Source of the DNA: a virus
Lineage: Duplodnaviria; Heunggongvirae; Uroviricota; Caudoviricetes
Virus record (IMG/VR): IMGVR_UViG_2671180884_000017
Reading direction: 5' to 3' (one strand)
DNA: 4,348 nt
Shown here: positions 3,446 to 3,467 of the stretch, piece after piece
Numbering within the stretch: position 1 is the first letter of the stretch
Layout of the letters: every line of letters starts with the position of its first letter
Position numbers and translations under genes: made by a program
Notes under the pieces: generated by a model
Database searches by the model: none
What the model was told of the DNA's origin: nothing
The model's input: the letters and a program-made list of their open reading frames with translations, nothing else

Positions 3446-3467
3446 GACGGGGACTCTCGTCCCCGTC
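3446..3467. other. GC-rich stem-loop between the hok-like stop and the 125-aa gene start
   Basis: Perfect 8-bp inverted repeat GACGGGGA (3446..3453) / TCCCCGTC (3460..3467) with a 6-nt loop. On the plus strand it is followed by GCGGTTTTCC; on the minus strand there is no U-tract after it, so it is not a classical minus-strand terminator. It may be a 3' structural element of the hok-like mRNA or an attenuator. Confidence 0.4.

Follow-up and report, generated by a model that had tools for sequence, protein, structure and literature searches.

The closest described relatives of the stem-loop examined here, which lies just downstream of a hok-like toxin gene in a 4,348-nucleotide (nt) stretch of Caudoviricetes DNA (IMG/VR virus record IMGVR_UViG_2671180884_000017, referred to as the window), are the hok/sok (parB) locus of plasmid R1 and the hokW-sokW locus of the Shiga toxin (Stx)-converting phages 933W and Sp5 (PMC8621323, AF125520). 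In R1-type hok, found on an IncFII plasmid, the stop codon is followed by 9 nt, the hairpin GGCGGGC-GCAG-GCCCGCC, UUUU, about 30 nt, and the sequence GAAGCGCC, which is complementary to the 5' end of the message (GGCGCUU), and a terminator comes next. According to what is said of R1 in the 1997 work of Franch, Gultyaev and Gerdes, full-length mRNA ends just past this fold-back box and truncated mRNA reportedly ends two to three nt past the stem. The hokW gene of 933W has its stop codon, 8 nt, the hairpin GCGGGGG-AGUAAU-CUCCCGC, 21 nt, and then CCUCAACGCACCC, complementary to its own 5' end, GGGUGCUUGAGG.

Genetic data are available for the R1 stem. Of the 22 loss-of-function substitutions that Le Rhun and colleagues obtained in the R1 3' untranslated region (UTR), 19 break a C-G pair of the stem that terminates the truncated mRNA. 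This mRNA is absent from mutants G345A and C358A, a loss that they ascribe to 3'-to-5' exoribonucleases (PMC9841398). Using numbering anchored on the mok Shine-Dalgarno sequence, we infer that G345 and C358 fall in the two arms of the hairpin at positions 569-586 of locus L092. For hokW-sokW, toxin-antitoxin function and an effect on phage release have been tested, in a paper that does not discuss a tac box, a fold-back inhibitory (fbi) box, or the 3' stem and leaves open whether smaller hokW RNAs are processed forms (PMC8621323).

We propose that the window hairpin is a conserved 3' UTR stem-loop that likely shields the processed, active mRNA of a hok-family type I toxin from degradation. This proposal builds on the structure itself, its conservation and covariation, the alternative partners of the 5' end, the boundaries of the cassette, and an order of elements shared with R1-type hok and hokW. 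By homology with R1, processing would occur, would halt at this stem, and would make the stem necessary for mRNA stability.

The window locus follows the R1 plan closely (Table 1). Its hairpin also stands 9 nt past the stop codon, between the toxin open reading frame (ORF) and an fbi-like box, with a perfect GC-rich stem and a 4-nt loop, and its 5' end likewise has two alternative partners, the fbi-like box and an internal box. The differences are in the details. The R1 stem has 7 bp and a stability of -15.9 kcal/mol, whereas the window has 9 bp (-18.2 kcal/mol) plus a 5-bp lower helix; the R1 loop is GCAG, whereas that of the window is of the GNRA type; and on the sense strand UUUU follows the stem in R1 but not in the window. 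Stem and fbi box are separated by 16 nt in the window versus about 30 nt in R1, the fbi pairing of the window is bipartite (7 + 8 bp), and the mok frame is not conserved in the window subfamily, unlike in R1.

The hokW-sokW locus resembles that of the window in phage type, toxin family, order of 3' UTR elements, and the pairing of its ends through GGGUGC...GCACCC, but the two are distinct. The hokW locus lies near the right end of 933W and encodes a toxin of 51 amino acids (aa) beginning MKQQKAM, whereas the window locus lies between tail-fiber/lom genes and an ECs_1237-like gene and encodes 46 aa beginning MSQKSL; hokW also has an annotated mokW and a weaker hairpin, at -14 kcal/mol. An identification of the window locus with the published hokW-sokW was considered and rejected, as the primers of that paper and the 933W annotation place hokW elsewhere. 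Stx phages of the 933W type carry two different hok-family loci. The label in one phage record (L001, PV189404.1, 1686-1826) calls the window-type ORF "MokW-like host killing," though it is neither mokW nor hokW; in 933W, the annotations of the genuine hokW, mokW, and sokW are at another site (L093, AF125520.1, 553-827).

Results

Positions are those of the window, and in the text elements on the minus strand, the hok-sense strand, are written from the higher to the lower coordinate. The original prediction placed a perfect stem-loop 10 nt downstream of the stop codon of a hok-like gene, and both parts of that description hold with small refinements. The plus strand reads GACGGGGA at 3446-3453 and TCCCCGTC at 3460-3467, exactly the arms described, and C3454 and G3459 also pair, giving a perfect 9-bp stem closed by 4 nt rather than 6 nt. 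On the hok-sense strand the loop is GAGA, a GNRA tetraloop, and a lower helix encloses the stem. The stop codon, TAG, occupies 3479..3477, leaving 9 nt before the first stem base. The gene itself belongs to the Hok/Gef family, matching Pfam PF01848 at 33.2 bits against a cutoff of 22, with 56 homologues that carry the Hok/Gef name. As the NCBIfam HokA and Hok models match only under their cutoffs, the toxin represents a divergent subfamily.

Table 1. Positions of the hok-type cassette elements and neighboring features in the window
Feature	Positions	Strand	Basis
Hok/Gef family toxin ORF, 46 aa, MSQKSL...CKQ	3477..3617	-	Pfam, homologues, RefSeq annotation
Hairpin, 9 bp with GNRA tetraloop, GACGGGGAC-GAGA-GUCCCCGUC	3446..3467	-	Sequence, folding, alignment
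Extended 3' UTR stem: lower 5-bp helix AACCG 3473..3469 / UGGUU 3442..3438 enclosing the 9-bp hairpin	3438..3473	-	Folding, alignment
Fold-back inhibitory (fbi-like) box, UCAGCCGA-UAU-GGCACCC, 3' end of conserved cassette	3412..3429	-	Folding, alignment, boundary
Predicted hok mRNA 5' end (tac-like box), GGGUGCC-UU-UCGGCUGA	3748..3764	-	Start of Rfam match, folding
Internal ucb-like box, GAAAGGCCCC, alternative partner of the 5' box in truncated RNA	3706..3715	-	Fold of 3764..3443, RNAalifold
Candidate hok promoter: -35 TTGCCG 3799..3794, 17-nt spacer, -10 TACAGT 3776..3771, +1 near 3764	3771..3799	-	Sequence reading, conservation
Candidate Sok-like antisense RNA gene: -35 TTGTCT 3623-3628, 17-nt spacer, -10 TAACCT 3646-3651, start near 3658	3623..3716	+	Inferred promoter and ends
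mok-like ORF, 61 codons, overlapping hok	3535..3720	-	Open in window and a few relatives
First canonical intrinsic-terminator-like hairpin past the cassette, ACGCCUGCC-UUAAAAA-GCAGGCGU then UUUUGUUUUG	3285..3317	-	Scan, folding

Folded in isolation, the hairpin reaches -20.4 kcal/mol (z = -4.45), a value that 0 of 200 shuffled sequences equaled. The stem alone contributes about -18 to -20 kcal/mol, the entire element with its lower helix -22.5 kcal/mol, and the plus-strand version is equally stable at -19.9 kcal/mol. No other perfect short-loop inverted repeat occurs within the window, and in the ensemble of the full transcript (3764..3412) every pair of the stem has a probability of 1.0. The z score, this uniqueness, the pair probabilities, and the independent recovery of the hairpin by RNAalifold described below place it beyond chance, and together the data support a conserved regulatory RNA structure on the hok-sense strand.

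Relatives showed what is conserved. Alignment of Hok homologues gathered 87 related loci, and the comparisons below use 48 distinct transcripts from prophages of Escherichia coli, Salmonella, Escherichia albertii, and Citrobacter (alignment A2), against which we tested a structure that had been named in advance. In the hairpin helix 99.8% of stem cells are paired, and pairs 2, 8, and 9 of the nine change on both sides: at pair 8, 28 sequences have A-U and 20 have G-C; at pair 9, 20 have A-U, 20 have C-G, and 6 have G-C; and Citrobacter has G-C at pair 2. All stem variants fall within -18.2 to -19.2 kcal/mol, and the loops (GAGA, GAAA, GCAA, GUAA, or GUGA) are of the GNRA type in 46 of the 48. 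The lower helix is 98.8% paired, with the G-U pair of the window retained as G-U in 21 sequences and present as G-C in 27. When the 3' partners were shifted by one to three columns, pairing over the entire structure under test fell from 95.7% to between 25 and 52%. RNAalifold, run on the 48 sequences without starting from the window, recovered both the hairpin and the lower helix. The hairpin is under structural selection.

Selection on a structure could also reflect a role other than stopping exonucleases. The hairpin might be a structural module or a site for a protein or an RNase (RNase III or RNase E, for example), or the locus might be an inactive relic. The mok frame is not conserved, and damaged 5' boxes in some relatives (L061, L011, and L026) show that decay occurs, points that fit such a view. 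Set against it, compensatory changes, constant stability, and a GNRA loop kept over four genera argue for a selected, stable hairpin, the toxin ORF is intact in 48 of 48 sequences, and the R1 mutants are a direct precedent for an exonuclease-stopping role (PMC9841398). We give this group of explanations a small chance of being right. As for the damaged copies themselves, the 5' box reads GGACACC in L061 (451-457) and GGATGCC in four loci represented by L011 (452-458), and in L026 (441-520) the entire 5' part has been replaced, with the 3' box GGCACCC intact in all three; these copies may be decaying or misregulated.

The fold-back function originally offered for the hairpin would belong to another element. 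GGGUGCC at the predicted 5' end (3764..3758) is exactly complementary to GGCACCC (3418..3412), and a second block, UCGGCUGA (3755..3748), is complementary to UCAGCCGA (3429..3422). In the minimum-free-energy fold of 3764..3405, both helices close the molecule (-151.4 kcal/mol, z = -5.63), and the ensemble of 3764..3412 gives these pairs probabilities of 0.98 to 1.0, with the closed fold 5.9 kcal/mol better than a forced-open one. The hairpin sits inside this closure, and the fold-back element is a separate box 17 to 55 nt farther downstream, at 3429..3412, that pairs with 3764..3748. The GGGUGCC/GGCACCC helix is nearly invariant and is paired in 97.9% of cells, while the second closing helix is 87% paired and includes wobble and double changes.

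A truncated message is predicted to fold differently. When the RNA is cut three nt past the hairpin (3764..3443), the 5' box pairs with 3715..3706 (positions 1-11 with 50-59), the leader is refolded, and the hairpin becomes the terminal 3' structure. The RNAalifold consensus contains the same 5' helix (columns 1-11 and 50-59), kept in 46 to 47 of the 48 sequences with one double change. As the fbi-like box and the internal box both pair with the 5' box, the latter has two conserved and mutually exclusive partners, following the logic of R1 hok, and a switch of the 5' box between them is predicted by these folds. In the full-length fold the hok Shine-Dalgarno sequence pairs with a conserved CUCC box, and in the truncated fold it does so partly.

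An earlier suggestion was that 3468..3476, just past the stop codon, pairs with the leader at 3831..3840 to silence the message. The window does contain the 7-nt complementarity behind it (CGGUUUU and AAAACCG), but comparative data and the folds of 3860..3400 contradict the pairing, which is absent from both the minimum-free-energy and centroid structures of that region. There, CGGUUUUACC (3840..3831) closes a small local hairpin and makes no contact with the 3' UTR. It lies within an upstream 169-aa ORF, upstream of the predicted promoter and outside the cassette, which starts near 3800. Besides the window, just one locus, which shares its upstream context, has an upstream partner for the 7-mer, and 23 or more loci lack any match. 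The conserved lower stem uses 3473..3469 instead, and this explanation can hardly be correct.

Intrinsic terminators share with the hairpin a GC-rich, short-loop structure beside a T run on one strand. They differ in that the window stem has no U tract right after it, conserved sequence continues on the sense side, and true terminators lie farther on. On neither strand does a U tract begin 0 to 2 nt past the stem, the spacing expected of an intrinsic terminator. The sense strand continues as AACUGGUUG, and the plus strand reads GCGG TTTT CC, so that the TTTT originally noted after the stem exists but starts 4 nt beyond it rather than directly after it.

If the plus-strand hairpin and GCGGTTTTCC formed a terminator, they would stop antisense transcription arriving from the 125-aa gene region. 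A consensus scan does list the hairpin as terminator-like, although only marginally, and the plus-strand fold is stable. However, the run past the 9-bp stem comprises only four T, part of which falls in the lower stem, and the conserved lower stem, if formed, would leave just a UU tail. It is not the end of any plus-strand transcription unit: every gene in the window lies on the minus strand, no plus-strand promoter or gene was found upstream of the hairpin, and the Sok-like RNA, whose start is about 190 nt beyond it in the plus-strand direction, is unrelated to it. The R1-type hok and hokW hairpins conserve stem, position, and stability but have no T run on the corresponding side. A plus-strand terminator is thus very unlikely.

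On the sense strand, the hok mRNA could instead end at the hairpin, with no longer precursor. A strong GC-rich hairpin directly after a stop codon would suit such a role, and its R1 equivalent is followed by UUUU on the sense strand. Beyond the missing U tract, this explanation meets the difficulty that conservation continues through the 55 nt past the hairpin to a box exactly complementary to the 5' end, which would make no sense if these nt were untranscribed, and that canonical U-tract terminators lie past the fold-back box, about 20 to 45 nt beyond GGCACCC, in nearly every context. We regard it as most improbable. Conservation up to GGCACCC, terminators located further on, and 5'/3' closure as the minimum-free-energy fold all indicate that the transcript extends beyond the hairpin.

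In the window, the first canonical terminator-like hairpin on the sense strand (3317..3285) lies 85 nt past the fold-back box, inside the 125-aa ORF, and has a stability of -17.8 kcal/mol (z = -4.7). It is found at the same offset in the window and in 34 loci of the 933W type. This hairpin may end the primary hok transcript in lysogens, with antiterminated late transcription reading through. In public records the downstream gene has 133 aa and begins with the ATG at 3420, a codon that shares bases with the fold-back box, AUGGCACCC; a good Shine-Dalgarno sequence, AGGUGA, stands before the ATG at 3396, from which the 125-aa version starts. Conservation that breaks after GGCACCC, together with AGGUGA before ATG 3396, makes the 125-aa start look likelier.

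The edges of the conserved region are sharp. Among groups, similarity stops exactly after GGCACCC, and past that point the loci fall into at least eight unrelated contexts. On the upstream side, similarity starts with a conserved TTGCCG-17-TAnAnT motif that ends 6 to 7 nt before GGGUG, and the hok -10 box is kept as TAnAnT in all relatives, the BLAST homology block beginning near 3800. Matches in BLAST break at two common points, with one set of genomes covering 4348..3408 and another 3800..3000, so that a module of about 390 nt (3800..3408), reaching past the hairpin, moves as a unit.

Promoter assignments remain candidates resting on sequence reading and conservation, since a strict consensus promoter scan of 3000-4000 found none for either hok or the Sok-like RNA. 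The candidate Sok-like RNA has a 16-bp terminal hairpin (3676-3713) followed by UUUCC and folds at -29.8 kcal/mol (z = -4.5). Its promoter-like boxes are conserved on the plus strand as TTGnnn-17-TAACCT, and in this region AGGTTAG and CAAG are invariant or nearly so, read on the hok strand. On the hok-sense strand, 3764..3607 matches the Rfam model "sok" (RF01794) with 37.1 bits, which falls short of the gathering score (59). This match, which also covers the Sok-like region, starts where the hok mRNA is predicted to begin, and what the model describes seems to be the hok leader, not the strand of the antisense RNA. The same Rfam search returned no family for the hok 3' UTR and, besides "sok," two chance-level matches on the downstream terminator. 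In the mok frame, most relatives, including those of the 933W type, have no ATG, GTG, or TTG start, and as judged from these sequences the subfamily may lack mok-coupled translation of the R1 kind.

Discussion

These data favor a model in which the hairpin is the protective 3' end of a processed toxin message. Transcription would start near 3764 from the hok promoter (about 3799..3771), cross the toxin ORF, the hairpin, and the fold-back box (3429..3412), and probably end at the 3317..3285 hairpin, at about 3285-3295. In the full-length RNA, UCAGCCGA..GGCACCC would pair with the 5' sequence GGGUGCC..UCGGCUGA, giving a closed and inert message. Slow 3'-to-5' exonucleolytic trimming would then strip the tail and the fold-back box and halt at the GC-rich, GNRA-capped hairpin. 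The freed 5' box would pair with 3715..3706, the leader would refold, and the RNA would become open to translation and to the Sok-like antisense RNA. Among the roles first offered for the stem-loop, mRNA stability is the one favored, the equivalent R1 stem being needed for truncated hok mRNA (PMC9841398).

Several points weigh against this model. A literature search on the exact locus found no relevant paper, and we found no transcript-end, processing, or toxicity data for it in the literature; the sole experimental study in an Stx phage concerns the other locus, hokW (PMC8621323). Behind the covariation counts stand about three or four independent variants of the stem rather than 48 separate events. 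Being almost invariant, the GGGUGCC/GGCACCC helix has no covariation of its own, so that support for this helix comes from conservation and the cassette boundary. Translational control may differ from that of R1, as the mok frame is not conserved. Finally, the cassette is sense-oriented within the late tail operon of a phage, so that read-through may produce many of its transcripts as long RNAs with the 5' box at an internal position.

One possibility raised by the last point is that this second hok/sok-type cassette of Stx-phage-like prophages serves lysis timing, with the hairpin and fold-back box acting on long late read-through RNA too. Late transcription would pass over the sok promoter, and trimming to the hairpin would yield hok RNA that is stable and can be translated, at a defined point of the lytic cycle. 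We consider such a role rather unlikely, but if it were true, the timed release of hok RNA would contribute to lysis timing.

Under the protective-stem model, a conspicuous hairpin gains a proposed function and the position of the fold-back element is corrected. The principle of an exonuclease barrier is itself not new, and this locus is an unstudied copy of a known toxin-antitoxin design. What it adds is a small natural experiment, in which compensatory stem variants occur at constant stability. Such variants support an idea that has so far come from R1 mutants, that the hok 3' stem is selected as a barrier to exonucleases. The analysis also locates exactly all RNA elements of a hok cassette that pipelines for annotation list just as "Hok/Gef family protein" and that is easily mistaken for hokW.

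The genomic setting is that of a common prophage region. All long ORFs of the window lie on the minus strand, and the region is 94 to 97% identical to Stx-converting phages of the 933W/Sp5 type. A 1,349-base query containing the cassette (window 3000-4348) was matched by 1,588 of 5,426 complete E. coli genomes. The locus corresponds to the ORF between lom and ECs_1237, where the Sakai record has no annotation and RefSeq lists a "Hok/Gef family protein" for EDL933. Across loci L003 to L089, the cassette, taken from promoter to fold-back box (window about 3412-3800), stands behind varied upstream genes, including lom, gpJ, and tail-fiber genes. With its sharp edges and the unrelated sequences that it precedes, at least eight in number, it behaves like a small mobile module.

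Three gathered loci lie in assemblies assigned to unrelated organisms: Xanthomonas pisi (L003), a Planococcaceae metagenome-assembled genome (L004), and a Vagococcus sp. (L006). All three are enterobacterial hok cassettes with protein identities of 76 to 100%, and those of L003 and L004 are on short contigs of 857 and 4,211 bases. They look like assembly contamination rather than true occurrences.

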